Assembly (NCBI GenBank): GCA_041659685.1
Contig: JBAZXV010000003.1
Span: 66,040 to 130,039 of the forward strand
Direction of reading: 5' to 3'
Origin: Parcubacteria group bacterium
GTDB lineage: Bacteria; Patescibacteriota; Minisyncoccia; Moranbacterales; UBA11712
Length of the DNA: 64,000 nucleotides
Positions 13,883 to 64,000 of the stretch are shown piece after piece. The number at the start of each line of letters is the position of its first letter. Within the stretch, counting starts at the first letter, position 1. The notes under the pieces were generated by a model. It saw only the letters and a program-made list of their open reading frames with translations, did no database searches and was not told where the DNA came from. The position numbers and the translations under genes were made by a program.

Positions 13883-13888
13883 GAGAAA

Positions 13889-15049: not shown

Positions 15050-15095
15050 ATTTTAGCCATGAACGGATAATGCGTTAATCGTCTAACAAAAAAAT

Positions 15096-15109
15096 GTGAT
15101 TTAAATCAC
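15096..15109. promoter_or_regulatory. Perfect 14-bp palindrome GTGATTTAAATCAC in the divergent promoter region between the efflux operon and the GGDEF gene
   Basis: Read directly from the sequence. It lies ~47 nt upstream of the adaptor gene start. Confidence 0.35.
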
Positions 15110-15378
15110 GTTTCCAGTTTCTAAATTTATATTATTCTGCGCGGCGTGTCAAGCAGATCCGACTTTAAGCGGCAACATTAATAATGAATTTAAATTAAAT
15201 CAGGATCTATGCCATCGGGATTATCTTCTATAAGTCTTTTTTATCCCAAGATTTTTATGAAAGATTTTTTACGAAATACTTTACAAAAAGGCTTTTGTGT
15301 GCTTTAATTTGTCACAAGAAAGAATAAAAACTCCAGGCTTGGAGTGTTCTTTTTTATAAAATCAAGGGGGGTGAAAAG

Positions 15379-16281
15379 GTGTCCCAAATCGCAATTCGCT
15401 GGCTAAACCTGATCCGAGCGTTCTTTTTTCGGATAAAGTACAAAGCGTTCGATTATTTCGGCGATGCGGTTTTTGTCGCCGATTCCCGCGGAGCTATTCT
15501 TTACTGCAACCCCGTTATGGCAATTGCAATTAACATGCCGGCGGAAAAAATTATTGGCCTGCAATACGGGGAAATTGCCCATGAAACCGATTATCCTGCC
15601 GAAGATTGTCTGCACGCAAAAATGCAGACTTCTCTCCAAAGAGAGAAAACGACAGCGTCCATGAACGGACGCTGGTTCGAAATAATTTGCGATCCGGTTG
15701 TGAAACGGCACAGGTTGGCGGCGGTGATTCACACCGTCGTTGACATAACCTGGTATGTCGACCAAAAGGAAACGTTGAGGCAACTTGCCATAAACGATCC
15801 CCTCACCGGACTTTTTAACCGGCGTTACATGGAAGATTCCCTGAAAAAGGTTATCCAGCGATCCGAAATGGGCCGCACTCCCGTAGGATTCGTAATGCTG
15901 GATCTCGACCATTTCAAGAGATTTAACGATGATTTTGGCCACGATGCCGGCGATGTCTTGCTGGCAAGACTAGGCAAACTTCTAATGGACAGCGTCCGTC
16001 CGGGAGACATTGCCTGTCGCTATGGAGGCGAGGAGTTCCTTCTTATTTTGCCCGGCGCATCCAAAGAAGCTGCTTGGAGGCGGGCGGAAAAAATTTTAGA
16101 GGCAGTCAAAAAAATCGATCTAAACCATCGAGGAAACCGCCTTGGCGAAGTTACCATATCCGCCGGGGTGGCAATTTTCCCGGAACACGGAAAAACCGCC
16201 AGTGATGTAATCCATGCCGCTGACCAGGCCCTTTACCGAGCCAAGCGCGAAGGCCGCAATCGGGTAGCCGCCGCGGAATAA
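15379..16281 (+). CDS. PAS-domain diguanylate cyclase (GGDEF)
   Basis: RYGGEEF active site with an upstream RxxD-like I-site region and an N-terminal PAS-like segment. GTG start with Shine-Dalgarno aaGGGGGtg. Confidence 0.85.
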   Translation: MSQIAIRWLNLIRAFFFRIKYKAFDYFGDAVFVADSRGAILYCNPVMAIAINMPAEKIIGLQYGEIAHETDYPAEDCLHAKMQTSLQREKTTASMNGRWFEIICDPVVKRHRLAAVIHTVVDITWYVDQKETLRQLAINDPLTGLFNRRYMEDSLKKVIQRSEMGRTPVGFVMLDLDHFKRFNDDFGHDAGDVLLARLGKLLMDSVRPGDIACRYGGEEFLLILPGASKEAAWRRAEKILEAVKKIDLNHRGNRLGEVTISAGVAIFPEHGKTASDVIHAADQALYRAKREGRNRVAAAE

Positions 16282-31677: not shown

Positions 31678-33045
31678 TTACTCTTCCCCGTCAAATTCTT
31701 CCATTTTAAATCTTCGGATCATGTAGGCAATTGGATTCTTTTTTGCAAGAATATTGAGAGCGAAATCAACCGCGTTCGAATCTTTCTCAATCGTTCCCAT
31801 GGGAAGGTCCGAAGGCATCCGAAGACTGCTCCATGCATCGCCCGGAAATGTTTTTATCGTAGCTGGCACAGAGATTACCGGCCAATGCGTGTGGGCCGCA
31901 AGTATCGGACCCAGCCCGTTGCTCATGCCGACTTTGGCGATGATCACTCCTCCGGCAGGAAATTCCCTTTCCAATCTTTTAAGTTCTTCAAGGCAAAGGG
32001 CGGTTTTTTTGTGACCGGAAATTATCTTTTCCACTACTTTCACACCCGGAATTTTGGGAACTTCAGGCATTTCGTCTTTTTCTGAACCGGTCCACAAAAC
32101 TAATGCCTGGTCGGATATTTTTGGAAAATCTTGCGTCAGATCGGCCACAAGCTGATATTTTGGTTCGATCATTTCCAGGTCTTCTCCGTCGCGGAAAGCC
32201 TGCTTGGAAAATTCTTTCCATTCGGGATCCCGCAAACGCCAGGAATCATTGTCAATTACATCGGCCACGACAAGCTCTCCGTCCTCGGTTATCCCGAATT
32301 CAATCTTGAGGTCGAGTATCCTGAAGTTTCTTTGCATAAACGCCCCTTCAAGAACCAAAAATGTTTTCTTCATGATTTCGTCCATTTTTTCAAGCCTGCC
32401 TGACTCTCCCAAAAGCACTTTCTTGCGCGATATTGTCCTCTTGAGATCGGATTTTTCATCCCAAACCGGTTTCCAGGCGAAAAGCGGCTTCCAGTTTTCC
32501 TCTTTCGGGTTAAGTATCACGGGATCATCCTGCTCTGAAGTAAGACCTTCAATTAATTTTTCACCGTCGATGACAACGCCCCCTTTAGTGGTCTTCAGAA
32601 AATATTCATTCGCGATGCGGGAAAAATAGTGAGGCGGCTCTCCCGCAGGAACTGTCATATGGGGATTTCTTTTGAGATAGCTTCCGAATGCATAGCGGCG
32701 CGGCACAGCCTCAACCAAAATCATTCGGCAAGGCTTGGCAACAAATTCCACTTCAGAAATTTGCCGCACAAAATGCGTGGGAATGCCGGCCTTTTTCAAA
32801 AGCTCAAAAACCCGGCAAGTCGTGAGATTGGAATTCCGGCCTTTACTTTTGAACTTTTTGGTATATTTAGGATCATTAAATGCGGTTATATCGTCCTTAT
32901 ACTCGACGATCACCGTTTTGGGATCATTTTTATTTTCCCAAATTTTTTTCGTTTTTCCCTCCGCGATAAGTTTCCCTTTTTGATGGCCAGGCATGGTGAT
33001 ATGGTTTATTAAATTAGAAAAAGGATTAAAATTTTCGAAAGGCAT
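31678..33045 (-). CDS. Bifunctional SAICAR synthetase (PurC) / PurE-type AIR carboxylase-mutase fusion (PAICS-like)
   Basis: N-terminal ~300 aa carry the PurC motifs EGKTKKIWE, LVEAVPRRYAFGS, LDLKIEFG and DVIDNDSWRLRD. C-terminal ~150 aa carry the PurE motifs LVLWTGSEKD and GLGPILAAHTHWPVISVP. Single uninterrupted 455-aa ORF. Confidence 0.75.
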   Translation of the reverse strand: MPFENFNPFSNLINHITMPGHQKGKLIAEGKTKKIWENKNDPKTVIVEYKDDITAFNDPKYTKKFKSKGRNSNLTTCRVFELLKKAGIPTHFVRQISEVEFVAKPCRMILVEAVPRRYAFGSYLKRNPHMTVPAGEPPHYFSRIANEYFLKTTKGGVVIDGEKLIEGLTSEQDDPVILNPKEENWKPLFAWKPVWDEKSDLKRTISRKKVLLGESGRLEKMDEIMKKTFLVLEGAFMQRNFRILDLKIEFGITEDGELVVADVIDNDSWRLRDPEWKEFSKQAFRDGEDLEMIEPKYQLVADLTQDFPKISDQALVLWTGSEKDEMPEVPKIPGVKVVEKIISGHKKTALCLEELKRLEREFPAGGVIIAKVGMSNGLGPILAAHTHWPVISVPATIKTFPGDAWSSLRMPSDLPMGTIEKDSNAVDFALNILAKKNPIAYMIRRFKMEEFDGEE

Positions 33046-33164
33046 ATTGCTTGGGAATCCAAATTTATCTGAAAATTTTCATTTTTGATTTGCATATGAG
33101 GAAATTTTCGGCTGTCAAATTTGAGATCAGAGTTTTATTTTGAAAAAATCTTTTATTCTTCTGC

Positions 33165-34469
33165 CTATCTTTTCTCAAAAACCCTTTTGAATATATAATC
33201 GACGTGCCGGAGCTTCTTTTCAAGGTCAAAACACCCGTCCAAATCTTCCCTGCTCAAATATTTCATCACTTTTTTGTCACGAATGAGCGCTTCCCGAAAA
33301 TCCTCCTTGCTTTCCCAGCAATTTTGGGCGATATCCCGGACAATCTTATAAGCCTCTTCACGGGGAAGGTTGCTTTTTTTCGCAAGAAGCGTCTGGACAT
33401 CCTGGGAGAAAACCAATCCCCTGGTAAGGAAAATATTTTCCCTCATCTTTTCAGGATAAATTATCCACTTTTCCAGGATGCCTGACAAACGGCTCAGCAT
33501 ATAATCAAGAAGAATCGACGCATCAGGAAGAAAAATTCTTTCCTGGCCGGAGTTTGAAAGATCCCGTTCATCCCAGCTGCTAATCGTCGCCAGGGCCGCT
33601 GCCGCATAACATCGCATCATATTCGCCATTCCGGAAACATTTTCGGCCGCAATAGGATTTCTCTTATGGGGCATAGCTGAAGATCCCCGCTGTTTTTCGG
33701 GATCGAAATATTCCTGGGCCTCAAGAATTTCCGTCCTTTGAAGAGTGCGGATGTTCACTCCGATCTTCTCGACTGTCCCGGCAACAATGGCCAGAACGGA
33801 AACATATTCAGCGCTGATGTCCCGCGAAATTATTTGCGAGGCGATAATGGGCCTCAGTCCTAAAATTTCGCAAGTTGCTTCCTCCACCCCGGGATCGAGC
33901 GTGTACATCCCCACCGCTCCGGAAATCTTCCCCACTGCGACTTGTTTTTCCAGTCTTTCCAGCCTGCTGTCTTGCCGGTTGAATTCGTCGTACCACCTGG
34001 CCAGTTTTGCGCCAAAAGTGATCGGCTCGGCATGAACCCCGTGTGTTCTTCCGATTTGAGGCGTATTTTTATATTTCAAGGCTTTTTCCTTGAGCGCTTC
34101 CTTTATTTTGTCGATCCGAATCCGAAGAAGTTTAATGCTTTCGATAAACTGAAGGCTGAGCGCCGTGTCTTGAGTGTCATAGGAAGTCATTCCGGCGTGC
34201 CAATAAGGACGAATTTCTTCCGGAAGCTGAGGCGAAGTATGCATCAGAAAAGCGATAACATCATGCCTCGTAATCTCTTTTTCAATCCGGTTTATTTCTC
34301 CGGGATCGATCCTTAGCGATTCAACCAAGTTTTTTGGAATTTTTACATCAAGAATCCCCAGGTTGACTTTGGCCGTAAGAACCGCCTCTTCAACCCTTGC
34401 CCAATTGCGAAATTTTGATTCTTCGCTCCAAATTCCATCCATTTCTTTGGTCGAATATCTCGATATCAT
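33165..34469 (-). CDS. purB: Adenylosuccinate lyase
   Basis: GSSAMPHKRNP signature. N-terminal MIxRYSxxEM typical of PurB. 434 aa. Confidence 0.9.
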   Translation of the reverse strand: MISRYSTKEMDGIWSEESKFRNWARVEEAVLTAKVNLGILDVKIPKNLVESLRIDPGEINRIEKEITRHDVIAFLMHTSPQLPEEIRPYWHAGMTSYDTQDTALSLQFIESIKLLRIRIDKIKEALKEKALKYKNTPQIGRTHGVHAEPITFGAKLARWYDEFNRQDSRLERLEKQVAVGKISGAVGMYTLDPGVEEATCEILGLRPIIASQIISRDISAEYVSVLAIVAGTVEKIGVNIRTLQRTEILEAQEYFDPEKQRGSSAMPHKRNPIAAENVSGMANMMRCYAAAALATISSWDERDLSNSGQERIFLPDASILLDYMLSRLSGILEKWIIYPEKMRENIFLTRGLVFSQDVQTLLAKKSNLPREEAYKIVRDIAQNCWESKEDFREALIRDKKVMKYLSREDLDGCFDLEKKLRHVDYIFKRVFEKR

Positions 34470-37694: not shown

Positions 37695-39185
37695 TTAATT
37701 TCCTCCCGCCCACTTCACCTCGCAAATTTCCGCCAAATTTCTGTTCACGGCAACCAGATTTTTCCCCGACAGTGCGTTTACGTCATTCTCTCCGACAATC
37801 CGGGCAAGTTCCGCGATCTCTTCTGTGGATATTTTAATAAAATTCTTGAGCTTGCGAACGCCTTCATCGACATCGAGTTGTTTTGTGAGTTCCGGCTTAT
37901 GCGTCGTTATGCCTGTGGGGCAAAGCCCCGTGTGACAAATCCGGTATTGCCGGCAATTGATGGCAATAAGCGCCGCCGTGCCAATATAGACTGCGTCTGC
38001 TCCGAGCGCAAGGCATTTAGCAAAATCAGCCGAAAAGCGCAGCCCTCCGCCGGCAATCAATGTTATTTTATCTCTTAACCTGAGCTCGCTAAGAATTTTA
38101 TTCGCCCTTGGTATCGCCGTCCAAATCGGAATTCCGACATTGTCCTTCACATACGCGTCCGTGGCGCCGGTTCCTCCTCCAAATCCGTCGACTGCAATGT
38201 AATCAATTCCCGCCTCGGCCAAAATTTTTATATCCTCCTCAATGTTCCCGCAGCCAATTTTCGCGCCGATCGGAATTCCGCCGGTGATTCCCCGCAGCCA
38301 TTTCACTTTTTTCGAAATTTCCGCAGGCGTCTTCATATCGTGATGATGGGCGGGGGAATAAGCCGGCTCTCCGGTCTTGAGCCCGCGAAGCTTTGAGACT
38401 TCCTCCGTCATTTTTTTGGCCGGAAGATAACTGCCCTTTCCCGGATAAGCCCCCTGGCCGAAACGGATTTCAACCGCCGCCACTTTCTTGAGGACGTCTT
38501 CGTTTATGCCGTATCTCCCCGTAGCGTATTGTCCGATCAAAAATTCTTTGGATTCATAAGCTTCCTCGATTATCCCCCCTTCTCCCGAATTAAAAGCTAT
38601 TTTCAATTCTTTTGCGGCGCGGGAAATAACAAGATGCACATTTTTCGAAGTTGCTCCGAAACTCATTCCGGAAATCATAATCGGAGAAGAAACCCGCAAA
38701 GGTTTTTTTGCCGCCGGACCGATGATTGTTTCCGTATTGACTTTTTCTTCTCGGTTTAAGGGTATTTTTGATATTTGAGCGGGAACGAAATGGAGGCCAT
38801 CAAACGAAAAATCGCAACCGGGATTCCTGAGAGATCCCATCGAGTTCACGATGCTCCTGCCCGTTTCCGCCAAAGTCTTGATATCAACGACCTTCCGATA
38901 AAATTCTTCGCTCTCAAGCGCTTTCTTTTTCCGCATAACCGCTTTTCCGCCTTTGGCGGACGCTAATCCAACTTCGTCCCGATTGCAATAATAAATTTCC
39001 TTAAGATTATTCTCGCTCCAAACTTCGCAACCCGGACAGAGGCATCCTTTAGCATCGATATCGCATCGGCTATGTCCGACTTCCTCAGAACAGTACAAGA
39101 TTTCACCCCGGCAATCATGCGGGTAACTGGGACAATTCGGACAAAGGCATTTCTCCCGGTTTTCCTTTGAATTTTGGACTGGCAT
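37695..39185 (-). CDS. Glutamate-synthase-family FMN-binding domain protein (GltB domain-2-like) with N-terminal Cys-rich DUF2769-like module
   Basis: VSSPIMISGMSFGATS...SGEGG and the GGTGA and IAGGGLR segments match the GltS FMN domain. The N-terminal 70 aa (CLCPNCP...GCLCPGCEVW) parallel the 76-aa neighbour. Confidence 0.7.
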   Translation of the reverse strand: MPVQNSKENREKCLCPNCPSYPHDCRGEILYCSEEVGHSRCDIDAKGCLCPGCEVWSENNLKEIYYCNRDEVGLASAKGGKAVMRKKKALESEEFYRKVVDIKTLAETGRSIVNSMGSLRNPGCDFSFDGLHFVPAQISKIPLNREEKVNTETIIGPAAKKPLRVSSPIMISGMSFGATSKNVHLVISRAAKELKIAFNSGEGGIIEEAYESKEFLIGQYATGRYGINEDVLKKVAAVEIRFGQGAYPGKGSYLPAKKMTEEVSKLRGLKTGEPAYSPAHHHDMKTPAEISKKVKWLRGITGGIPIGAKIGCGNIEEDIKILAEAGIDYIAVDGFGGGTGATDAYVKDNVGIPIWTAIPRANKILSELRLRDKITLIAGGGLRFSADFAKCLALGADAVYIGTAALIAINCRQYRICHTGLCPTGITTHKPELTKQLDVDEGVRKLKNFIKISTEEIAELARIVGENDVNALSGKNLVAVNRNLAEICEVKWAGGN

Positions 39186-54077: not shown

Positions 54078-54749
54078 ATGGCCTCAAAAAAAGAAATCCG
54101 GTTGCTACGGTCATTGCTTTTATTAATCGGAATAATTTTTACCGCGTCATCATGCGTCAGCATGAATAGCACCCCTCAACATCCGATCCAGCAGAGTATC
54201 CGCGTGGACGGGGATCTCCAGCCAAAGCAAGTCAAGATCTCAAACTTCGGAAATATTCAGGAAACTGGCGTGACTGCTTTTTCGAGCAACTATCGCCAAT
54301 TTTCCAGGAAAATCAAGAAAGGCAACAAAACTGAAGAAACAAACTACTGGGAGCCGATCAAATGGCAAGGCATGAACAATCTGGCTCCTGACACAAAAAA
54401 ACTGAAGTTCTCTCTTATTGTAGAAAATCCGTTTTTCAGGACTTATCGACTTGTCAAAATTATCGACATCGAGGGCCAAAAGCGGGAAGAGGAAGTTCTG
54501 ATATTTCCGAGCGGCCAGAAAGAAAGCTTCGCGGACATTCAGGAAATGTACAACATAGAGTGTCCGGTCGTAGCCGACAAGTCGATCAGGATTACCATCA
54601 GGTTGGACCTTCTGGAGGGCTCCGGAATACCGGGGATGAATAGTCTGACGGTTTCCGAACTCTCATACAGGATAGGTAGCGCTGGAAATCTCTCCGATCA
54701 GAGAATCTCCAAGAAAGCGCAAAAAGGGGGTGTTCACCCGGAAAACTGA
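54078..54749 (+). CDS. Hypothetical lipoprotein
   Basis: Signal peptide with lipobox TASSCVS. Confidence 0.5.
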   Translation: MASKKEIRLLRSLLLLIGIIFTASSCVSMNSTPQHPIQQSIRVDGDLQPKQVKISNFGNIQETGVTAFSSNYRQFSRKIKKGNKTEETNYWEPIKWQGMNNLAPDTKKLKFSLIVENPFFRTYRLVKIIDIEGQKREEEVLIFPSGQKESFADIQEMYNIECPVVADKSIRITIRLDLLEGSGIPGMNSLTVSELSYRIGSAGNLSDQRISKKAQKGGVHPEN

Positions 54750-54844
54750 AAAAGGAATTAGGGGTTTAAATGCGGGAAATCATCGGAGTTGATTACAAAC
54801 CACATTTCATTTAACACTTCGCTTCACATCTAAGGAGATCGAGT

Positions 54845-55465
54845 ATGAGACGGAAAGTTTTCGCGGCCTTCATGGCCCTGGCTATCGTGTTTGCCCTGAG
54901 TTCTTTGGCAATGGCCAATTGGGATCCGCCTGCGCCCGTTTATAACGACGGCACCGCCGACGTCAAGATTGACCAGGTTCAGGGCGCTGCGGGCGTGGCC
55001 GGTTTGGTGGTTGACGTCACGAGTGAAAAGGGCCATGTGTTCAAGACCACCGACTCCACTTCCGTTTCCGGCAGTGGCGCCTTTGGCCTGAACGACTTTA
55101 ACAGCGTCGACGGATCAAGCTGTTTCAGCAAAGATGGCTGCTTCAAGGAAGGCGTGGTCGGCGTTGGTCACTTTGACTTCAACTACGACAAAGTCCACAC
55201 CTGCGGCACTGTGTACGTTGACAATAAGACCATTGCCAACGTGTACCAGAACACCAGCTCCATGAACAGCAGCCTGATCGCCAGCGCTTCCGCCTGTCAG
55301 CTGCCGGTGACGGCCAATGCCAGCCAATCCCAGACCTTCACCCAGAACGTGGTGAACGCCGTGATCCCGAACCCGAATGCCGGTTGGGGCCAGCCTGCGA
55401 CCCTGGGCACCGTCAACAGCGGCTATGTCGGCAACACTGCCGCCAGCGTAAAGATCGGCAACTAA
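54845..55465 (+). CDS. Secreted hypothetical protein (in GC-rich island)
   Basis: Signal peptide ending ALSSLAMA. GC ~58% against a ~42% background. Gly/Asn/Val-rich. Confidence 0.55.
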   Translation: MRRKVFAAFMALAIVFALSSLAMANWDPPAPVYNDGTADVKIDQVQGAAGVAGLVVDVTSEKGHVFKTTDSTSVSGSGAFGLNDFNSVDGSSCFSKDGCFKEGVVGVGHFDFNYDKVHTCGTVYVDNKTIANVYQNTSSMNSSLIASASACQLPVTANASQSQTFTQNVVNAVIPNPNAGWGQPATLGTVNSGYVGNTAASVKIGN

Positions 55466-55578
55466 CAACATAGCTCCTGGAAGTATCTACAGGACTTAAT
55501 CAACCGGCCCGGTCGCGGAAAAAGAGGCACGTCCTCCGATCCGCTTCCGGGCCCGTTATATATTAGGAGATCGGACGC

Positions 55579-56634
55579 ATGAATAAAAAATCGGGTCTTA
55601 TCCCCATACTGCTGAGTGCGGTTCTGACGGTATTCCTGGCGTATTCTGCCCAAGCTCAGACTGTCCAAACCAATACCGCTTCTCAGAACACTAACCTCAA
55701 TCAAGTTGTTCTGCCCGGGGGCACCGGATACGGCGGAACAACAAACAACACTGCAACCGACCCCGCTGGAGGCACTGTCGCTTCCAATCCTCAGAAGTAT
55801 CCACGGACGTGGTTTAATCCGATGAACCTTCCAGGGGTTTCCGGTCCGATCTATTATGGCGGTCCGGTGCGATATGGAAAAGAACTTCTGGATGTTGGCA
55901 TCCTCATCCGTTTCAAACCGGTTTGGGATCCTGCCTTCTCTCAAAAATTCGCCGGCCGGCCGGGTAAGACGAATGTTTCTGAATCTATTCCGACGCCGAA
56001 AGACGCCCGATCCGGCACTTCAGTCACGATGACTCTGCATCAGCCGCAAAGCCCGAAGAAGCTCAGGGATTTCAATCGTTCCTTTGAGCTCGTCGACTGC
56101 TATTCAGTTGACGGGCAAGACGGCGCCGACAGTCCAAAGCTGCTGGGCATGGCGGCTGAAAAAGCGAGCAAGGTTAATGCCGACATTGGCATTGTCGTGA
56201 ACCAGGGGGCGAATTTTGAGCTCTCCGGCAAAGACAGCCAGCAAGTCATCGGATTTTCTCCGAGTCTCATGGGAGGAGGAGCCGGATCGGTTGCAGGAGG
56301 CGCGTTGGGGTTTGCCTTAGGTTGGGCTCAGCACAAGGCAAAGTACTTAACCCAACCATTCCTCGTGGTTTTGCTTTTTAAGAGCACGGGGGTTCCATAT
56401 GACTGGCGGGAGGAGGAGCAAAAAACTCAACCCAAACCGGTTCCTGCAGTGCCGCCTTCGTCCTACAATGGCGATAATAATAACCATGAGGCAGGCGCGG
56501 CGCAGGAGCCAGCAAACCAAGTGCATGGAGCGAAAACCGCGAAAGGGACAAAAGACGTCCCTCCTCCCAAAGGGGAGAAACTCCCCTACAAGAGACCGGC
56601 ACCCTCGCTTCTGATCGAGCAGCAGCCCAGGTGA
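55579..56634 (+). CDS. Secreted hypothetical protein (in GC-rich island)
   Basis: Signal peptide ending AYSAQA. GC-rich. Gly/Thr-rich N-terminus and a Pro/Lys-rich tail. Confidence 0.55.
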   Translation: MNKKSGLIPILLSAVLTVFLAYSAQAQTVQTNTASQNTNLNQVVLPGGTGYGGTTNNTATDPAGGTVASNPQKYPRTWFNPMNLPGVSGPIYYGGPVRYGKELLDVGILIRFKPVWDPAFSQKFAGRPGKTNVSESIPTPKDARSGTSVTMTLHQPQSPKKLRDFNRSFELVDCYSVDGQDGADSPKLLGMAAEKASKVNADIGIVVNQGANFELSGKDSQQVIGFSPSLMGGGAGSVAGGALGFALGWAQHKAKYLTQPFLVVLLFKSTGVPYDWREEEQKTQPKPVPAVPPSSYNGDNNNHEAGAAQEPANQVHGAKTAKGTKDVPPPKGEKLPYKRPAPSLLIEQQPR

Positions 56635-57067
56635 TCTCCAAAAAAAGAAAATCTGGACAAAGCTTGTGTCGGAAAGCAGTCCGGCCAGGCATACCACAGG
56701 AGGCGCAACCGCGAGTTACGCCTCCTTTTCCAATATAAACACAGAACTACTAATGTTTTTCAGCTTTAAAATACATCCGCTCAAACGGAATATTTTTCAT
56801 AAGATTGCGGAGGAGAACCAGAGAGTTGACTCGTCAATTCCAGAAATAATCTGGGAACTCGATTGTATTATTTGTCAAAGATACGCAAAAAAGCGCTTAG
56901 GCATAATTTATTCTCCATTATTTTTTACTTTTGCTTTGCCGACAGCCGCAGAAAGAATCGCCTGCTGTTCAGTAAAGCAAAGGTCGAAAAATTACTTCTT
57001 TCCGAAAATGTTTTCTGAAGGAGGGAAGGAAAGTTAATCCAGTGAATTTGAAAGGGGGTGAGAAAAC

Positions 57068-57631
57068 ATGAAAAAGATAATTGTATCGTCAATTGTTGGT
57101 TTAGCGCTTGTTGCGGCGATATCGCCGGCGATGGCCAGAGTCAATTTCCATACGCCTTCGATGCCGAACAATCATAATAATTGCTGCGCCAATAATGATC
57201 CATGCTGCCCGGAAGTGAAGATTGACAGCTATAACAACGCAATGATAAAAAATTCCGTTTTAGCGGTCAGCAACACGGGACTAAATGGAGTAATAGACCC
57301 GGAAGATAATGATTCTTATCACAACAATAATAATCATAATTCTTTCAACTGGCCCAATAGTTCGGACGATCCAGGGTCAATTACCACAAAAGACGCCACG
57401 GCAGTTAACGGAGTCGAGAACGACGTTAATTCGATCCACGAAATCGCCATGCCGACATCGGGAACTCTCGACATAAAGACTGTAAACTCTGCATACGTCG
57501 ACAATAAAGTCGGAGCGGTAGCAAATTCCGGCGCAAATCTAATCATTAAATCGGGCACCATAAGCACCGGCGGAGCTGGCGCCCAGAACTCAGTAGTAAA
57601 CATGGTCCAATCAGGAATCACGGTTTACTAG
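57068..57631 (+). CDS. Secreted Asn/His-rich protein carrying one copy of the N-x-A-x-A-x-x-G-x-N repeat shared with the downstream giant protein
   Basis: Signal peptide. CC...CC segment. C-terminal NSAYVDNKVGAVANSGANLIIKSGTISTGGAGAQNSVVNMV parallels the repeats of the 1069-aa protein. Confidence 0.55.
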   Translation: MKKIIVSSIVGLALVAAISPAMARVNFHTPSMPNNHNNCCANNDPCCPEVKIDSYNNAMIKNSVLAVSNTGLNGVIDPEDNDSYHNNNNHNSFNWPNSSDDPGSITTKDATAVNGVENDVNSIHEIAMPTSGTLDIKTVNSAYVDNKVGAVANSGANLIIKSGTISTGGAGAQNSVVNMVQSGITVY

Positions 57632-57742
57632 CCACTTTACGGAGAAAACTGGAGGGCAAAGCCTTCTTCAGAATGTTCCGAACAAGGACAGCCCTTCAGT
57701 TAATCCGTATAATTTGAAATTTTTACTTATAAATCCAAGATC

Positions 57743-60700
57743 GTGAAGATTATTTCCGGAAAAAATAAAGTTATAAAAATGAATTTGATTCGTTTTTTTA
57801 TTGCTTGCCTTCTGACTTTAGGACTGATTTTTAATAATATTGCCCTACCTATTTCGGTGGAAATTGCAATGGCGCAGTCTGATTCTGGTCAAGAAACGGA
57901 CACGAAAGAAAATATCGATAACCAAGAATCTAAAAACGCCAACGGCGGCGAAGAATCAGGAAAAGTTGATGGTCCATCAAGCGCTCAGGAAAGCAAGGAC
58001 ACCCAAAAGGAGGACGGACAAGACGATCCAATTTGGAAATCATGCGACTTTTCTAAAAAAGAAAATAAGCTTATTAAAAAAAACAAAGGCAAGGAATGCC
58101 GCAAAAAAGACAGCTGTAAAAAGATAAAAGAATGCCTTTCCGATTTCATCAGCATCAAAAACGAAGCGGACATAAAAAACGATTCCAATTCCTCCGCAAA
58201 TACCGGGGAAAATATTATCAGTCCTGACGAAGACAGCGCCGGGATAGATTATCCGATTGAAGAAACAGCGACCGAAGAAAATCCGAAAGAAAAAAATGAA
58301 TCAGAAGACGTTACTGAGATCAATCCTGAATCGGGGAATGAAGACGAATCCGGTGACAATATTTCTCCTCAAAATGAACCCCCCGGTGAACCGTCCGGAA
58401 TAAATGATCCGGATCCGGAAATATCCGGCGGAGAAGGAAAAGAAGCTTTTGAAGATACGGCTAAAAACGGGATTGATCCAAACAGCCAAAAAGAAGCATC
58501 GGACAGCGCCTCAACCGATCAAGCCGTATTAAAAGATGAAGCTTCTGAAGAAAAAGACAATATTTCGATAAATAGCGATCAAATAACAGAGAACGAAAAT
58601 AATCCTCTCGACAAAAAAACCGCGCAAAGCGTCCCAACGGTGACCGAGGAAAATGACCAGGAAATAGGAACATCGGCAACGGACAATGAAAAAAGCGCAC
58701 CAGTTGATAAAGAAATAAATTCTCCGGAAGAAGAAGATGAGAACATCGAAAGTATCCCGGCAGTGACCGAGGAAAATGATTCGGAAACAGAAACATCGGC
58801 ATCCGCCGAAAAAAGCGACGCGGAGAATGAAGATATGCCAAACAGCATCGAAACGGATGATGCCGCGGCAGAAAACAGTGTGTATAACGAAATAAACACA
58901 AATGTCGTCGGAGAAAATGTCGAAAAATTCGAACAGAATATCACGGGCATGTACAGCGGAGACATCAATCTTCTCGACGAATTCACAAATCTTCTTTCCA
59001 GTGCCGATACGGCAGATTCAAACGGCCTAACAGCCGCTCAGATTGCAATTGAGAATACTGCCGAAACTGAAAACAGCCTGGAATCCAGCGCGACAACGGG
59101 AGGCAATTCAATAGAGGGAGAAGACAGCCGGGCCGCAATCGAAACGGGTGATGCCATATCAGCGGCGAATATCGTGAATTTTATTAATGTCAATCTTATC
59201 GGAGAAAATTGGCTGTTTGCGACCATAAATGTTTTTGGTGACTGGGTGGGAGATTTGATTGTTCCGGGAGAAGGCCTCCTGAATGTTCCGGAGGCGAGTG
59301 CGCAGTCAAACGAGAATATTTCGATTGAAAATGACGCTACAATAATAAACACCGCTGATGCAAACGCATCGACCGGATCAAACACGATCAGCGGAGATAA
59401 CGGCACAGCCGCAATAGAAACGGGCAGCGCCGCTTCCAGTTCGGTTATCAAGAATGTGGTCAATACGACAATTATTAAAAATAGCTGGTTCTTTTTGACG
59501 ATAAATAATATGGGCAGCTGGATTGGAAAAGCAATCCATTGGGGAGAAGATAATAACGAAGAGATATACAGCTATGATTTTAATGAGGACGAAAGTTGGG
59601 AAGCAAACCTCACTAATTGGTTTTCAAGCATATTCATCAAAAACAGCGCGAATATCGAAAACAGCGCAGTTGCAAGCGCTTCGACCGGCAGTAATTCCAT
59701 TAAAGGAAATTATGGAGCGGCTAATATTCAAACCGGAAGCGCGTATGCCGCCTCCAACATATATAATTTTGTGAATACAAGCATCATCGGGAATAATTGG
59801 TTTTTCGCAACCGTAAATATATTCGGTACCTGGAAAGGAAACGTCAATTTCGCCTATCCCGACCTTTCCGTTTCGATTAATGACGGGAAGGGTTCAGCTA
59901 ACAGAGGTGAAAATCTGCATTATTCCGTTGAGATCGAGAATGAGGGAAAAGCAAGCGCCAGTAATGTCTATGTGCGGATTTCCCTCCCTGATTGCCTAAG
60001 CACCAGCGGCAACCCGAATACGGGGGACAAAAATGGATCCGGCAATGAAATTTCCTGGAATCTTTCGGGCCTCGGAGCGGGAGAGAAGAAAAGCTTTTCA
60101 ATTGACGCGGCGGTTCCAGAAAATATTTCCCCGGATGAATCAAAAATCCGAACATATGCGCAAGTACTGACCGAGACCAAAGAGACGGAACTCGATAATA
60201 ACACTTCGGCAGACGATACGCTGATTAATCCGTCAGTAGAAGATAATAATGAAATCAGCCCGCCTGAGATCATCACTTTGAATGACAACCCCAATAAAAT
60301 TCAGGGTTCCCAAGTCAATGATCCCCAAACTAATGACCCTCAAGCGCAATATTCGCTTTCGATAAGAAGAGAAATAAACAACAAAAAGGCAAAGCCGGGA
60401 GAGAAAATTAAGTACACCATCTATGTCAGCAATTCGGGCGATGGAGATCTGCATAAAGTGAAAGTGGAGGACAATCTGAAAAATAAGGATGGAGATCTGG
60501 GATCGTACGCATGGGACATTGGAAATCTCGGGAAAGGGAAAACAGCCAAAGTAACATACGGACTCCTGATCGGCGCTGATGCTCCGAAGGGAGATTATAA
60601 AAGTTCGGCTGTTGCCACTGGCTTCGATCCGAACGAGTCGGAAGTGAAGTCCTCTGAAGCAAAAGTGTCTTTTCATATGGAGAGCGTTAAATTAGCCGCC

Positions 60701-60952
60701 GCCCAACAGCAATATTATTACTATTACTACTTATATTCCCCCGCCTACAGCAGACAGGTGCAGCCATTTTCAATTATTGAAACGGCTTCCGCCGCCGAAA
60801 ATAACGAAGACACTCATCCGAGAGTTCTGGGCGCATGGACCAATCGCAAATCCGCCCTTCCTCTCACCTATTGGTTAATCGCAGCCCTTTCGTATTCTTA
60901 TCTCTTAAACAGCTTTCTTTTCCCTAAGAAAAAAACAAAACAACATACATGA
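57743..60952 (+). CDS. Giant acidic surface protein with three novel ~75-aa repeats, two DUF11-like domains, a poly-Tyr tract and a C-terminal sorting-signal-like anchor
   Basis: N-terminal signal or transmembrane segment. Asp/Glu-rich region with 120-nt tandem DNA repeats. Three repeats ...STGSNSI.G..GAA.I.TGSA.A.SNI.NFVNTSIIG.NWFFAT.N.FG.W. DUF11-like segments GENLHYSVEIENEGKASASNVYV and GEKIKYTIYVSNSGDGDLHKV. Terminal LPLTYW, then a hydrophobic stretch and KKKTKQHT. The alternative start is the ATG at 57779. Confidence 0.7.
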   Translation: MKIISGKNKVIKMNLIRFFIACLLTLGLIFNNIALPISVEIAMAQSDSGQETDTKENIDNQESKNANGGEESGKVDGPSSAQESKDTQKEDGQDDPIWKSCDFSKKENKLIKKNKGKECRKKDSCKKIKECLSDFISIKNEADIKNDSNSSANTGENIISPDEDSAGIDYPIEETATEENPKEKNESEDVTEINPESGNEDESGDNISPQNEPPGEPSGINDPDPEISGGEGKEAFEDTAKNGIDPNSQKEASDSASTDQAVLKDEASEEKDNISINSDQITENENNPLDKKTAQSVPTVTEENDQEIGTSATDNEKSAPVDKEINSPEEEDENIESIPAVTEENDSETETSASAEKSDAENEDMPNSIETDDAAAENSVYNEINTNVVGENVEKFEQNITGMYSGDINLLDEFTNLLSSADTADSNGLTAAQIAIENTAETENSLESSATTGGNSIEGEDSRAAIETGDAISAANIVNFINVNLIGENWLFATINVFGDWVGDLIVPGEGLLNVPEASAQSNENISIENDATIINTADANASTGSNTISGDNGTAAIETGSAASSSVIKNVVNTTIIKNSWFFLTINNMGSWIGKAIHWGEDNNEEIYSYDFNEDESWEANLTNWFSSIFIKNSANIENSAVASASTGSNSIKGNYGAANIQTGSAYAASNIYNFVNTSIIGNNWFFATVNIFGTWKGNVNFAYPDLSVSINDGKGSANRGENLHYSVEIENEGKASASNVYVRISLPDCLSTSGNPNTGDKNGSGNEISWNLSGLGAGEKKSFSIDAAVPENISPDESKIRTYAQVLTETKETELDNNTSADDTLINPSVEDNNEISPPEIITLNDNPNKIQGSQVNDPQTNDPQAQYSLSIRREINNKKAKPGEKIKYTIYVSNSGDGDLHKVKVEDNLKNKDGDLGSYAWDIGNLGKGKTAKVTYGLLIGADAPKGDYKSSAVATGFDPNESEVKSSEAKVSFHMESVKLAAAQQQYYYYYYLYSPAYSRQVQPFSIIETASAAENNEDTHPRVLGAWTNRKSALPLTYWLIAALSYSYLLNSFLFPKKKTKQHT
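58631..58870 (+). repeat. Two tandem ~120-nt near-repeats inside the acidic region of the giant gene
   Basis: ggtgaccgaggaaaatgaccaggaaataggaacatcggcaac aligns with cagtgaccgaggaaaatgattcggaaacagaaacatcggcatc. Both encode (V/I)P(T/A)VTEEND...TSA. Confidence 0.6.
59051..59857 (+). repeat. Three protein-level ~75-aa repeats (Asn/Gly/Ala-rich, ending NWFFAT.N.FG.W)
   Basis: Repeat starts at ~59051, ~59327 and ~59639. Aligned by eye. Confidence 0.55.
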
Positions 60953-61155
60953 AAAAAAGGGGACTTATAAGAAAATTCGTATTCCCTCTTACTGCAACGA
61001 TTCTCATAGTTTGGTTTTGGAATGTTAACCGCGGAGAAGAAGGATACTATTGGTTTTTGGGACTTGTCTTTTCGATTCTGCTTCTGCATTATCTGTTTCT
61101 GTCCGTTCGGTATATCAGAAAGCGCTTAAATTCCGGCCAGAGAACCCCTTTTTAA
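60949..61155 (+). CDS. Small two-transmembrane membrane protein (hypothetical)
   Basis: 68 aa. Overlaps the giant-gene stop by 4 nt. Confidence 0.3.
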   Translation: MKKRGLIRKFVFPLTATILIVWFWNVNRGEEGYYWFLGLVFSILLLHYLFLSVRYIRKRLNSGQRTPF

Positions 61156-61289
61156 GCCATATTTAAGGTTGCCGGTAAATTCAGGCCCTCGAATAAAAAT
61201 TGACAGCTAGAAATAACCTAATATAATAAATGCACCGAGGCAAAGACATTATAAACTTCGGAAAATCCTGCGGATGACCAAGGAGGAAG

Positions 61290-61800: not shown

Positions 61801-61871
61801 AAATTATTAAACTCTCTGAGATCGATTTCCGGCTGATTCTTCCTAGGCGCAAGAAAATGACAGAAAAAAAT

Positions 61872-64000
61872 ATGAGTATCAAACAAAGAAGCTTTTACTG
61901 GATTCTGGCGCAAGGAATCGCAATTATGCTTTTGGTTTACTCGACAAGCTTCATCAGTTTCGCCCTCTTTCATTCCGTCTCCGAAATAGCGTCTATTGTC
62001 ATCTCCTTTGGAATATTCATTGTTGCCTGGAACTTTCAGAAATTCCGGGGAAACAATTTCGTCCTGATTATCGGAGTCTCTTACTTTTTCGTGGCCGCCC
62101 TAGATCTCCTTCATACTCTTTCTTTCAGCGGATTGTCTCTCTTTCAAAATGACTCGAACCTGCCGACCCAGCTCTGGATAGCGGCAAGATACATGGAAAG
62201 CCTCTCATTTATTGCGGCTTTCTTTTTTTTAAAGAGAAAAAAGATGCTTCGCGGAGATTCAGTTTTTCTTCTTTTCCTCGTTATTTCACTCGCGATCACG
62301 CTGTTTGTTTTTTACTGGAGAGTATTTCCTGACGCATTTATCGAGGGATCCGGTCTTACGGAATTTAAAATATCAAGCGAATACCTGATTTCGTTCTTCT
62401 TTTTGGTTTCATTCGGATTGCTTTATTCCAACCGCCGGCTGTTCGATCCCAGATTTGCGCAGTTCCTTATGCTTTCGCTCTCGGTAAAAATTGCGTCGGA
62501 AGTGTTTTTTTCCCATTATGCCAGTGTAACCGACCTTTCAATGCTGATGGGTCACCTTCTTAAGGTTTTATCCTTCTTTCTTCTCTATAAGGCCATTATT
62601 GAAATAGCACTGATTGATCCTTATAATGTTTTATTCCGTGATTTGAAACAATCGGAACAAAAGTACCGGGACTTGGTTGACAACTCATTGGTCGGAATCT
62701 ATAGAGCCGACCTCGAAGGAAATTACCTGTACGTTAATGAAGCCATGGCCGAAATGTTCGAGTTTGAAACGCCCGAAGCTATGATTCGCGAGGGCGGAAA
62801 AATGCGTTACGAAAAGGAAAGCGATAGAATGATTTTCCATGACCGACTCCAAAAAGAAGGGAGAATCGCCAACTACGAACTTGCGGGAAAAACCAAAACC
62901 GGCAAAAAAATAAACATCCTGTCCAATGCAATGATTGCCGGCAACGAAAGATCCGGGATGATTCTCAACATTACCCTCCGAAAAAAGCTTGAGAATTTAC
63001 TACAGAAAAACATCAGGGAACAGCAAATCATAATTGACTCGGTATCCGCAATGATATTTTTCAAAGACCGGGAAAACCGCCTGATCCGGGTAAATAAAGC
63101 GTTTGAAAAAACTATGGGAGTGCCGAAGAAAAGGCTAGAAGGACTATCCCTCAGCGAAATATATCCGGCATACCAGGCGGAGGCATTCCAAAAAAGTGAC
63201 CTCGAAGTTATTAAATCCGGAAAAGAAAAATTAGGAATAATCGAATATATGGATACATCAGTCGGCACCAGGCTGGTCCAAACAGATAAGGTCCCCTATT
63301 TTGACGAATCGGGAGAGATTGCAGGCATTATCGGTTTTTCAATCGACATTACCGAAAACAAAAAGGCCGAAGAAGCGCTTAGGGAAAGCGAAGCCAAATA
63401 TCGCCAGCTGTTTTCGAGCATGGCCAGTGGAGTTGCCTACCACGAAATAAAATATGACCGGAAAGGAAATCCGGTTGACTACGTATTTATCGAAGCCAAT
63501 GAATCCTATGAAAAAATGACCGGACTTAAAAGAGAAGAATTAATCGGAAAAAGCGCGCTGGACATCATTCCGAAAATGAAAGAGTACCCTTTTGACTGGA
63601 TCGGCGCTTATGGAAAAGTAGGCTGCGGAGGAGAGCCGCTCCGATTTGACCGATACTCTAATTTTCTCAAAAGATGGATATCAATATCCGTCTACAGCCC
63701 TAAAAAAAATTTTGTTATCTCTGTTTTCGAAGATGTGCATGAACGAAGAAAAGCGGAAGACGCGAAAGATGAGTTTCTTTCTCTGGCTTCCCATCAACTG
63801 AAAACACCGCTTTCAAGCATCGGCTTGTCCTCCGAACTTCTTCTCAGAGGAGTTTCCGGAAAACTTGAAAACGAACAGAGAGAATATCTTGAGGACATCA
63901 ATAAATCCGTAAAAAGGATGACTCTTCTTGTTAACAATCTTCTCGATGTTTCACGCCTTGACATAGGCAGTTTTGAATTCAAAAGAAGCCCTCTCAATTT
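61872..64000 (+). CDS. Sensor histidine kinase, 3'-truncated at the window end: N-terminal MASE-type (MASE3-like) membrane domain, three PAS domains and HisKA
   Basis: ATG at 61872 with an open frame to the window end, which is why it is missing from the ORF track. Six to seven transmembrane helices with HSVSEIASIVISFGIFIVAW. PAS-like segments. H-box LASHQLKTPLSSI. Confidence 0.8.
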   Translation, partial: MSIKQRSFYWILAQGIAIMLLVYSTSFISFALFHSVSEIASIVISFGIFIVAWNFQKFRGNNFVLIIGVSYFFVAALDLLHTLSFSGLSLFQNDSNLPTQLWIAARYMESLSFIAAFFFLKRKKMLRGDSVFLLFLVISLAITLFVFYWRVFPDAFIEGSGLTEFKISSEYLISFFFLVSFGLLYSNRRLFDPRFAQFLMLSLSVKIASEVFFSHYASVTDLSMLMGHLLKVLSFFLLYKAIIEIALIDPYNVLFRDLKQSEQKYRDLVDNSLVGIYRADLEGNYLYVNEAMAEMFEFETPEAMIREGGKMRYEKESDRMIFHDRLQKEGRIANYELAGKTKTGKKINILSNAMIAGNERSGMILNITLRKKLENLLQKNIREQQIIIDSVSAMIFFKDRENRLIRVNKAFEKTMGVPKKRLEGLSLSEIYPAYQAEAFQKSDLEVIKSGKEKLGIIEYMDTSVGTRLVQTDKVPYFDESGEIAGIIGFSIDITENKKAEEALRESEAKYRQLFSSMASGVAYHEIKYDRKGNPVDYVFIEANESYEKMTGLKREELIGKSALDIIPKMKEYPFDWIGAYGKVGCGGEPLRFDRYSNFLKRWISISVYSPKKNFVISVFEDVHERRKAEDAKDEFLSLASHQLKTPLSSIGLSSELLLRGVSGKLENEQREYLEDINKSVKRMTLLVNNLLDVSRLDIGSFEFKRSPLN

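Follow-up and report, generated by a model that had tools for sequence, protein, structure and literature searches.

A long β-hairpin repeat absent from domain databases in a predicted membrane-anchored giant protein and its small neighbour from a Parcubacteria group bacterium

Near the end of a 64,000-nucleotide stretch of DNA from a Parcubacteria group bacterium (assembly GCA_041659685.1, contig JBAZXV010000003.1, positions 66,040 to 130,039; the whole stretch is called the window here), two open reading frames (ORFs) follow each other on the forward strand and encode a small protein of 187 amino acids (aa) and a giant protein of 1069 aa. Both had been placed correctly in a first-pass annotation, which a model had made from the sequence alone. 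The two proteins share a repeat unit, the core of which is a long β-hairpin, and this hairpin repeat is a real, conserved and folded domain that is absent from the databases. The domain is new, but it belongs to a protein of a familiar kind, anchored at the surface, built from repeats and, in relatives, linked to a sortase. Judged by its sequence, the giant is a member of a membrane-anchored class of paralogues, here termed class B, and one that bears CLIPPER domains. Here, we describe the repeat and the family in which it is found, and then discuss whether the paralogues could co-assemble into a scaffold or adhesin of the cell envelope.

The giant contains three strong units (U2, U3 and U4 in Table 1; residues are numbered from the GTG start), which are 44-57% identical in pairwise comparison and match each other with blastp E-values of 7e-20 to 5e-27 and Smith-Waterman z-scores of 21-30 relative to 500 composition-preserving shuffles. 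The three internal repeats of ~75 aa described in the first-pass annotation are thus real, and two more units had been overlooked, one full and diverged (U1) and one partial (U0). U1 matches U2 and U4 with blastp E-values of 3e-11 and 4e-11, and U0, which follows a Lys- and Cys-rich sequence containing four Cys, matches U2 to U4 with E-values of 1e-5 to 1e-7. One partial and four full units are the norm in the family, five profile matches being found in 98 of 124 family proteins, and the giant shows this unit count of class B.

AlphaFold, supplied with an alignment of 121 sequences, predicts an all-β structure for aa 432-705 of the giant, with predicted local distance difference test (pLDDT) scores of mostly 80-97. 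A modelled unit begins with a strand of 20-22 residues, a TGxN turn, two short strands and a TGD turn, and continues with a 16-residue strand, a GN turn, a hydrophobic strand of 9-10 residues (NWFFATVNI) and a short last strand. The predicted template modelling score (pTM) reaches 0.61 in spite of disorder in 40% of the construct, an argument for fixed positions of the units with respect to each other. The same picture is obtained for a typical family member (P0009), with pLDDT values up to 98 and first strands of ~30 residues. In a mean-field direct coupling analysis (DCA) of 1,181 distinct units (effective number of sequences, Meff, 995), the top couplings line up without a gap as an antiparallel ladder (i+j about 55), namely (3,51), (7,48), (9,46), (13,42), (17,38/40), (19-20,36) and (24,31). 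The analysis also gives a second small hairpin within positions 57-75 and a contact (47,58) that joins both hairpins. From this ladder and the second hairpin, a full unit can be read as one long two-stranded hairpin plus a short hydrophobic hairpin. AlphaFold and independent coevolution agree, and as models they show the unit as one long antiparallel β-hairpin of ~53 residues. Its consensus, QxNxAxIxNNLxLxANTGxNxAxxNTGGxSxIxTGDANxxANxVNxxNxNI, is rich in Asn, Gly and Thr, and in the membrane-anchored paralogue each long hairpin is followed by the short hydrophobic one (NWFFATVNIFGxWxG). One face of the long hairpin is conserved and made of Ala, Ile, Leu and Asn at the paired positions 7/48, 9/46, 11/44, 13/42, 15/40 and 17/38, and the opposite face is polar and variable.

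Table 1. Features of the two genes and their immediate surroundings (positions in the window; residues of the giant counted from its GTG start; iE, independent E-value; HMM, hidden Markov model; pI, isoelectric point; TRF, Tandem Repeats Finder).
Feature	Position	Strand	Evidence or remark
Small secreted paralogue, 187 aa	57068-57631	+	ORF call; strong Shine-Dalgarno sequence AGGGGGTGA
Small protein, short unit 1, aa 50-122, with ~25-aa Asn/His-rich insert	57215-57433	+	Alignment of relatives
Small protein, short unit 2, aa 134-182	57467-57613	+	iE 2.7e-4 to short-unit HMM
Candidate promoter-like site AGGACA-17-TATAAT between both genes	57685-57713	+	Consensus scan, 10/12 matches
Giant membrane-anchored paralogue (predicted), 1069 aa from GTG	57743-60952	+	ORF call
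Giant, signal peptide MNLIRFFIACLLTLGLIFNNIALPISVEIAMA, cut before QSD, aa 13-44	57779-57874	+	Sequence inspection
Giant, partial unit U0, aa 134-169	58142-58249	+	HMM iE 1e-6; low pLDDT
Giant, acidic low-confidence region, aa 170-340 (171 residues)	58250-58762	+	29% Asp+Glu, pI 4.05
Two-copy direct repeat	58626-58691 and 58749-58814	+	66 nt each, 123 nt apart, 76% identical
Giant, full unit U1, diverged and acidified, aa 341-412	58763-58978	+	HMM iE 6e-11; pLDDT 60-88
Giant, full unit U2, aa 432-510	59036-59272	+	All-β model, pLDDT mostly 82-93
Giant, full unit U3, aa 523-601	59309-59545	+	pLDDT mostly 73-97
Giant, full unit U4, aa 627-705, ending ...NFVNTSIIGNNWFFATVNIFGTWKGNVNFAY	59621-59857	+	pLDDT mostly 77-96
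Giant, DUF11 (CLIPPER) domain, aa 706-823	59858-60211	+	PF01345 E 5.2e-20, 72.3 bits against a cut-off of 24.6
Giant, DUF7507 (CLIPPER_2) domain, aa 874-970	60362-60652	+	PF24346 E 4e-9, 36.9 bits against a cut-off of 27
Giant, QQQYYYYYYLYSPAY tract, membrane-proximal linker, aa 988-1002	60704-60748	+	Sequence; TRF period-9 row 60713-60731
Giant, PRVLGAW motif, aa 1026-1032	60818-60838	+	Precedes the C-terminal helix
Giant, transmembrane helix ALPLTYWLIAALSYSYLLNSFLF, aa 1038-1060, and basic tail PKKKTKQHT	60854-60949	+	Sequence inspection
68-aa ORF, two hydrophobic segments	60949-61155	+	ATG overlaps the stop codon of the giant (ATGA)

The first-pass annotation could not place the repeat in a described family and proposed it as a candidate new cell-surface repeat domain. 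In Pfam-A (2025 copy) and NCBIfam (2026), the repeat region of the giant has no match at E<=1. When 136 diverse units were scanned singly against the same libraries, no Pfam family was matched by more than one unit, and in NCBIfam one unrelated dehydrogenase model was matched by two and every other model by one. Repeats of the β-helix, choice-of-anchor and Ca-tandemer types gave isolated matches without recurrence across the 136 units, the weak matches to choice_anch_K (E 0.018), beta_helix_1 (E 0.096) and Ca_tandemer (E 5.5e-4) coming from one unit each. The Pfam models for curlin repeats (Curlin_rpt, PF07012) and chaplins (PF03777) matched neither the giant nor any of the 136 units at E<=1, and known S-layer anchoring or lattice domains (SLH, CWB2 and similar) were found by Pfam and NCBIfam in neither the giant, the small protein nor other family members. 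Protein sequences in the PDB were matched neither by phmmer nor by a unit profile, and Foldseek, run with two confident AlphaFold models against the PDB, returned two and four chains at E<10, none of them below 0.9 and with TM-scores of at most 0.12. The unit is thus absent from Pfam, NCBIfam and the PDB, which supports the original proposal.

The domain is also not peculiar to this genome. A word-index search found six relatives with the repeat region of the giant and 232 with an alignment of those six, and a single-unit profile, searched against 1.84 billion representatives of protein clusters (formed at 50% identity), matched 3,468 clusters at E<=1e-3, 2,497 at E<=1e-10 and 1,311 at E<=1e-30. 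The matched proteins are mostly 600-800 aa long with four or five units, and in their source records all are named ‘hypothetical protein’, except for a DUF11-bearing subgroup named for DUF11 (CARDB or TIGR01451). Scanning one genome per species gave 212 genomic relatives, the best 80 of which were compared as loci. Wherever their record titles are informative, these 80 loci come from Patescibacteria, the ultra-small bacteria of the candidate phyla radiation (CPR), including Morani-, Roizman-, Curtiss-, Woese-, Davies-, Gottesman-, Levy-, Shapiro-, Ames-, Chisholm-, Woyke-, Kaiser-, Adler-, Ryan- and Nealsonbacteria, Saccharibacteria and other Patescibacteria. About 30 ‘binchicken’ bins in the European Nucleotide Archive (ENA) are titled ‘uncultured Gammaproteobacteria’ and one ‘uncultured Pseudomonadales’ (L022, L024, L025, L032, L033 and ~25 more); they carry the typical CPR operon including its sortase, and their proteobacterial titles are probably placeholders or mislabels. 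The family is therefore apparently restricted to the Patescibacteria, as far as the record titles of the best-scoring relatives indicate. The proteins nearest to the giant come from Moraniibacteriota and are 38-47% identical to it. In Moranbacteria UBA2206, the homolog of the giant is split within unit 3 into overlapping ORFs of 397 and 515 aa (L001:7410-10101); the same split is seen in L002, L003 and L014, four records that may share reads, and a frameshift, an assembly error and a true split are all possible. Another relative, P0117 (970 aa), has a C-terminal dockerin type I domain (E 3.9e-6) in place of the usual anchor.

The small protein begins with a signal peptide ending in AMA (next residue R), followed by a Cys-rich sequence (CCANNDPCCP) and two hairpin-only units. 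Of the full unit, these retain no more than the first ~55 residues; the ...NWFFATVNIFGTW part and the hydrophobic hairpin are missing. One related copy had been noticed in this protein at first; the relatedness holds, and the count has to be changed to two truncated units. The full-unit profile missed the small protein at E<=1e-3, and a word-index search of 5.8 billion proteins left it an orphan. With an HMM built solely from the ‘short’ units of other genomes, it scored E 5.1e-5 and ranked second among the 275 ORFs of the window, after the giant. Its ortholog in a Moraniibacteriota locus (L005) has 176 aa (phmmer E 4e-18) and immediately precedes the ortholog of the giant, and full-length family members from Curtissbacteria are matched as well (phmmer E 5e-10 and 5e-9). 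Short unit 2 aligns at ~1e-6 to each unit of the Curtissbacteria members and the L017/L012 proteins, the Cys-rich start aligns with the N-terminal partial unit of the Curtissbacteria members, and an alignment with seven small relatives displays two units of the form NxAxxxNxVxAxANTGxN...GxITTGNATA...N. Short unit 1 is supported by the alignment with these small relatives and with the N-terminal unit of the Curtissbacteria members. On the strength of these sequence comparisons, we regard it as settled that the small protein is a hairpin-only paralogue of the giant and that the pairing of the two is conserved in the nearest relative.

The start of the giant differs between our reading and the public annotation. 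The NCBI protein P0074 (1027 aa), named ‘CARDB domain-containing protein, Parcubacteria group bacterium’, is 100% identical to the giant and starts at its Met43, behind a Shine-Dalgarno-like GGTGGA in the region 57743-57871, which removes a canonical signal peptide. Because a textbook signal peptide begins at Met13 (ATG at 57779), and because an equivalent one begins the homolog of the giant in L001, Met13 is the likely true start, which would give a protein of 1057 aa and would correct a public start-codon call that hides the signal peptide. The promoter-like site between the two genes is only a candidate, since the count of such sites in the region is not above that in shuffled sequences.

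In the C-terminal half of the giant, the two DUF11-like β-domains that had been recognized by eye are both significant in Pfam. The CARDB model overlaps the DUF11 match, and TIGR01451 matches with 46 bits against a cut-off of 24. DUF11 and DUF7507, renamed CLIPPER and CLIPPER_2 in 2025, are CnaA-like immunoglobulin (Ig) domains that are often crosslinked by isopeptide bonds and typically form the stalks of fibrillar adhesins, the isopeptide bond being absent from some DUF11 domains (PMC12617251). In the first domain of the giant, inspection by eye finds DLSVSINDG and VRISLP at the sites where the Lys-Asp-Asn isopeptide triad would have its Lys and Asp; a phmmer search of the PDB, in which 9IFR is included, returned no alignment for a comparison of the triad. 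U4 joins DUF11 without a linker, and the junction ...FAYPDL has the form (F/A)(G/A)YPDL, which it has in common with P0001. Further downstream, the six-Tyr tract noted at first is present as part of QQQYYYYYYLYSPAY, and it appears lineage-specific since it is absent from the C-termini of relatives.

The giant ends in a hydrophobic helix followed by a basic tail, and most relatives end alike. Together with the signal peptide, this is the end-to-end layout of class B, as found by inspection, and it predicts that the giant is membrane-anchored rather than freely secreted. This refines the label ‘secreted family’ given at first. Neither an LPxTG signal nor a sortase gene accompanies the giant, a search of the window with a sortase HMM finding nothing; the two occur with another, Microgenomates, class of paralogues. 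The sequence LPLTY (in ALPLTYW) was considered as a sortase motif and rejected, as it is not conserved in the Moranbacteria relatives and there is no sortase in the window. A (V/I)LG(A) motif, with no described meaning, lies 10-45 residues before the anchor in both the transmembrane-anchored and the LPxTG classes, including the giant. In the ~750-aa class, KKxx(I/V)NLAW, likewise of undescribed meaning, stands exactly at the start of the transmembrane helix, and the layout of this motif, helix and basic tail resembles a tripartite sorting signal.

The giant as a whole is acidic, as stated at first (pI 4.24; 180 Asp+Glu against 80 Lys+Arg), and contains 11% Asn. Its acidic region between U0 and U1 has pLDDT values below 50 up to about aa 302 and of 41-60 thereafter, with two weak predicted strands. 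This region had been described as a 120-nt tandem-repeat stalk, and neither part of that description survived. TRF finds no 120-nt array in the gene; there are only two 66-nt copies 123 nt apart, which TRF does not call either. They encode VTEENDQEIGTSATDNEKS and VTEENDSETETSASAEKS, acidified versions of the first strand of the unit, the second copy being the first strand of U1 itself. Since the region is N-terminal to the repeats and the anchor is at the C-terminus, it would lie distally and form no stalk between the membrane and the domain. The many Asn codons had also raised the possibility of a target of a diversity-generating retroelement, which was dropped since the mismatches in this sole internal DNA repeat are not adenine-specific; no reverse transcriptase turned up in Pfam scans of 20 of the larger ORFs of the window.

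The gene neighbourhoods of relatives place the two proteins in a wider context. ORFs called in every fetched locus were screened with two HMMs, that of the unit and one for sortases with its seed in L004. Loci of the Microgenomates type have a conserved co-directional order of genes A, B, C and sortase. Protein A is secreted, has ~430 aa and four short units, and ends in an acidic and aromatic C-terminus (FDFDFDLxDLLxxLGL); protein B is the transmembrane-anchored member, with ~750 aa, four full units and the end KKxxINLAWLLLxxP... followed by basic residues; and protein C has ~385 aa, three short units and a Gly/Pro-rich linker. Many C proteins end with LPATG, LPVTG, LPQTG or LPETG, a hydrophobic stretch and RLRSGRSP, that is, with a canonical cell-wall sorting signal. 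By a loose motif search, the ends are LPxTG-like in 18 of the 33 C proteins with enough downstream flank, the others being variants such as GLSDTSG. The sortase at the end of the operon belongs to PF04203 in L004. Of the 42 loci that have enough flank and a B protein shorter than 850 aa, 34 contain a co-directional sortase gene no further than 2.5 kb downstream. The operon is exemplified by L004:146-5420 and is found in ~34 further loci (e.g. L018, L020, L027, L033 and L037). In such loci, a gene for a ~200-aa protein with two units is often present on the opposite strand, and in L004 the sortase gene is followed by that of a 447-aa polytopic membrane protein with no Pfam match.

Short-unit genes lie upstream in 50 of 63 loci with enough flank, and in several loci of the Parcubacteria type (B protein of at least 850 aa) a small short-unit gene is located directly upstream of that for the large paralogue. 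The giant resembles these class B proteins also in this respect, the 187-aa protein being its adjacent hairpin-only paralogue. Downstream, the 68-aa ORF has a weak counterpart after the ortholog of the giant in L005 (12381-12572, E 4.7e-4) and may tentatively be counted as part of the module. The giant belongs to a larger, sortase-less Parcubacteria/Moranbacteria subtype, in which a small partner, the giant and a tiny membrane protein would make up the conserved trio. Also downstream of the ortholog of the giant, two ~460-aa proteins are encoded in L005 (14937-17811), with signal peptides followed by SFFSDTETSTGN..., a signature that we take to be of the TasA/camelysin type, dependent on SipW. 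Vicinal or paired Cys recur in the linkers of the family, and both the giant and the small protein have Cys pairs, which fits an oxidizing extracytoplasmic location. A sortase is near-ubiquitous in Microgenomates, and a family of extracytoplasmic thiol-disulfide oxidoreductases is enriched in CPR bacteria (PMC6744442).

We infer that both the giant and the small protein are oriented to the outside of the cell; the signal peptides, Cys pairs, CLIPPER domains and C-terminal transmembrane helix with its basic tail all fit an extracytoplasmic location, as do the adjacent sortase and LPxTG paralogue in relatives. In the model that we favour, and consider rather probable, the hairpins of the different paralogues mediate their co-assembly into a scaffold or adhesin of the cell envelope. 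The giant would be a type I membrane protein, held by its C-terminal helix after cleavage of the signal peptide. With the anchor at the C-terminus, the two CLIPPER-type Ig domains would form a membrane-proximal stalk that lifts the four-unit hairpin module outward, the four and a half units would pack into one rigid all-β body, and the acidic disordered N-terminal region would be outermost. The small protein would be a secreted ‘hairpins-only’ paralogue, the conserved apolar face of which may be left unsatisfied because the hydrophobic hairpin is missing; it could dock onto the module of the giant or onto its own copies by sheet-to-sheet or edge-to-edge β-pairing. More generally, paralogues with different anchors (membrane, wall or none) may co-assemble via the apolar face or the sheet edges, and the giant and the small protein would together form a surface scaffold or adhesive layer.

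Several observations weigh against this model. The case for co-assembly is drawn only from the shared units, the missing parts and the gene order. The four-unit-module DCA (Meff 257) is dominated by pairs of the same position in different units, including non-adjacent ones, and such couplings are compatible with in-register stacking as well as with concerted evolution. A sortase is found nearby in 0 of the 26 loci of the Parcubacteria type, which include the closest relatives of the giant. Short unit 1 is weak when taken alone (iE 1.1 with the short-unit HMM), and a literature search found no description of the hairpin repeat family. The envelope type of the organism is deduced from the NCBI label and the affinities of the giant and the small protein, and the gene content of the window is richer than that of typical CPR genomes. 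The genes in question (10346-16281, 31678-34469, 37695-39185 and 61860-63998) encode an AcrB-type RND pump with its HlyD partner, PAS-GGDEF and MASE3-PAS-HisKA proteins, purC/purE/purB-like proteins of purine synthesis and a protein with a glutamate-synthase domain.

Alternatively, the hairpin units of several paralogues could build a CPR-specific self-assembling surface polymer, be it a fibre, a sheath or an S-layer-like film, a possibility that we regard as doubtful. The transmembrane protein would then serve as base or nucleator, the LPxTG paralogue, attached by the sortase of the operon, would provide a further tether, and the secreted hairpin-only paralogues would form the bulk; this more detailed scheme is no less speculative. 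If true, it would represent a third, independently evolved system in the style of chaplins and curli. Ultra-small groundwater bacteria reportedly have a surface layer that has not been identified, and such a polymer might be that layer.

A related proposal, likewise unlikely in our estimation, is a functional-amyloid-like fibre, comparable to chaplins and curli, in which the units stack in register, the anchored paralogue nucleates and the secreted paralogues elongate. The giant, and in Microgenomates also the LPxTG paralogue, would tether the fibre or film, and the 187-aa protein would elongate it here, an assignment of roles to which we give little credence. The set of anchored long and secreted short paralogues mirrors that of the chaplins, the repeats are rich in Asn, Gly, Ala and Thr with an alternating pattern, and the sole Foldseek listings for both models are FapC (E 1.4 and 0.93), CsgA (E 3.7) and a β-helical antifreeze protein. 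These listings, however, are far from significant (probability at most 0.02, TM-score at most 0.12) and have no counterpart in a Pfam match to Curlin_rpt or the chaplin domain. Moreover, both AlphaFold and DCA point to antiparallel hairpins with arms of ~25 residues rather than to short strand-turn-strand rungs, and the anchored module is predicted to be a confident closed monomeric body. Many of the top couplings do join the same position in different units, as stacking would require, but this covariation also connects non-adjacent units, as concerted evolution would give.

The giant could also be a fibrillar adhesin for attachment to a host, with a CLIPPER stalk and the four-unit module as ligand-binding head (e.g. 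for a cell-wall polysaccharide of the host), in which case the small protein would be an unrelated accessory or a decoy; we consider this improbable on both counts. Its signal peptide, N-terminal non-stalk module, CLIPPER and CLIPPER_2 domains and C-terminal anchor correspond to the layout of DUF11 fibrillar adhesins (PMC12617251), CPR bacteria are largely epibionts that need surface contact (PMC11665869), and one relative (P0117) has a dockerin domain. Most family members, on the other hand, are of the ~750-aa Microgenomates type and lack stalk domains, so that the module is separated from the anchor by a short linker; across CPR classes, the module shows position-by-position conservation, unlike typical fast-evolving adhesive tips; and the same unit persistently occurs in two to four paralogues together, as would be expected of an assembly more than of a single binding head.

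That the repeat is an artefact of composition, an Asn-rich low-complexity region in an ordinary DUF11/CARDB surface protein, as the plain NCBI name, the 11% Asn and the partial disorder might suggest, is refuted by the z-scores of 21-30 against composition-controlled shuffles, the clean coevolution ladder, the thousands of homologs that conserve the unit position by position and the high AlphaFold confidence, and it can be practically discounted.

Directly upstream of the small gene, four co-directional ORFs (54078-57037) encode proteins of 223, 206, 351 and 123 aa, the first three with signal-peptide or lipoprotein-like starts. This region has a G+C content of 51% compared with about 44% and contains no Pfam family above cut-off, and homologs of its ORFs were found in none of the fetched related loci. 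Downstream, the segment from 61.2 to 64 kb was at first taken to be free of ORFs, which is not the case, as it contains the long ORF of the MASE3-PAS-HisKA kinase that runs off the end of the window. A perfect (12/12) sigma-70 consensus, TTGACA-16-TATAAT, is located at 61200-61227 in the gap of ~700 nt before this kinase gene. No RNA gene was found in the window by Rfam or tRNA scans.

The abstract of a preprint estimates that Patescibacteria/CPR bacteria account for 15-50% of bacterial species, and those in cultivation live in attachment to other cells (PMC11665869). Hardly any of the proteins on their surface have been identified so far, the first CPR-specific pilus having been described in a 2026 preprint. 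Given the thousands of related CPR proteins, often encoded beside a sortase, the hairpin family is probably a major unstudied part of the CPR cell surface. The conserved Microgenomates operon, with its sortase and three differently anchored paralogues, offers a concrete candidate for a core envelope structure and leads to predictions: hairpin-to-hairpin assembly, sortase-dependent anchoring to the wall and, if they are carriers, surface localization in cultivable Saccharibacteria, several uncultured Saccharibacteria metagenome-assembled genomes being known to carry the family. At the least, the results support the building of a new domain family for the hairpin unit.

Among known systems, the chaplins of Streptomyces comprise long proteins with sortase signals (ChpA-C) and short secreted ones (ChpD-H). 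The hairpin family is similar in that its paralogues share one small β-forming unit, some are anchored, in Microgenomates by LPxTG beside a sortase, and others short and secreted, and the genes are close together. In contrast to the ~40-residue chaplin domain, however, the hairpin unit has ~53 residues, no sequence or Pfam relationship exists between the two, and the hairpin family has a third, transmembrane-anchored class. With the curli proteins CsgA/CsgB and with the functional amyloid FapC of Pseudomonas, the family shares imperfect repeats rich in Asn, Gln, Gly and Ala, and the corresponding PDB entries (9nqd and 8c50) are the sole ones that Foldseek ranked for both models, but the matches are not significant (E 0.9-3.7, TM-score at most 0.12), there is no Curlin_rpt match, and curli and Fap need outer-membrane secretion channels, whereas the links of the hairpin family are to a sortase, LPxTG signals and transmembrane anchors. 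The Microgenomates operon resembles Gram-positive sortase-dependent surface proteins and pili in its PF04203 sortase and in the frequent LPATG, LPVTG or LPQTG end of the C paralogue; the giant and its direct orthologs, in contrast, lack LPxTG and have no sortase within 10 kb or in the window. The hairpin units also differ from CnaA/CnaB pilin domains, and neither a pilin motif nor an E-box was seen.

The giant is close to the CLIPPER fibrillar adhesins in combining CLIPPER and CLIPPER_2 with a signal peptide, an N-terminal non-stalk module and a C-terminal anchor (PMC12617251). It differs from them in having only two stalk domains and an N-terminal module that is not any of the listed adhesive domains; moreover, its first CLIPPER domain seems by eye to lack the Lys and Asp of the triad, and most members of the hairpin family have no CLIPPER domain. 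Pam pilins of CPR bacteria consist of a nine-strand β-sandwich and a truncated Ig-like domain and assemble by donor-strand exchange (bioRxiv 10.64898/2026.03.03.709456). Membership of the hairpin family among them was considered and is unlikely, as this published architecture, the only basis of the comparison, differs from our models, in which four to five units with very long hairpin strands are repeated. What the hairpin family has in common with the Pam pili is that it is apparently confined to CPR bacteria, that its proteins, formerly ‘hypothetical’, are predicted to be exported by Sec, and that they are encoded in an operon with membrane-anchored partners.

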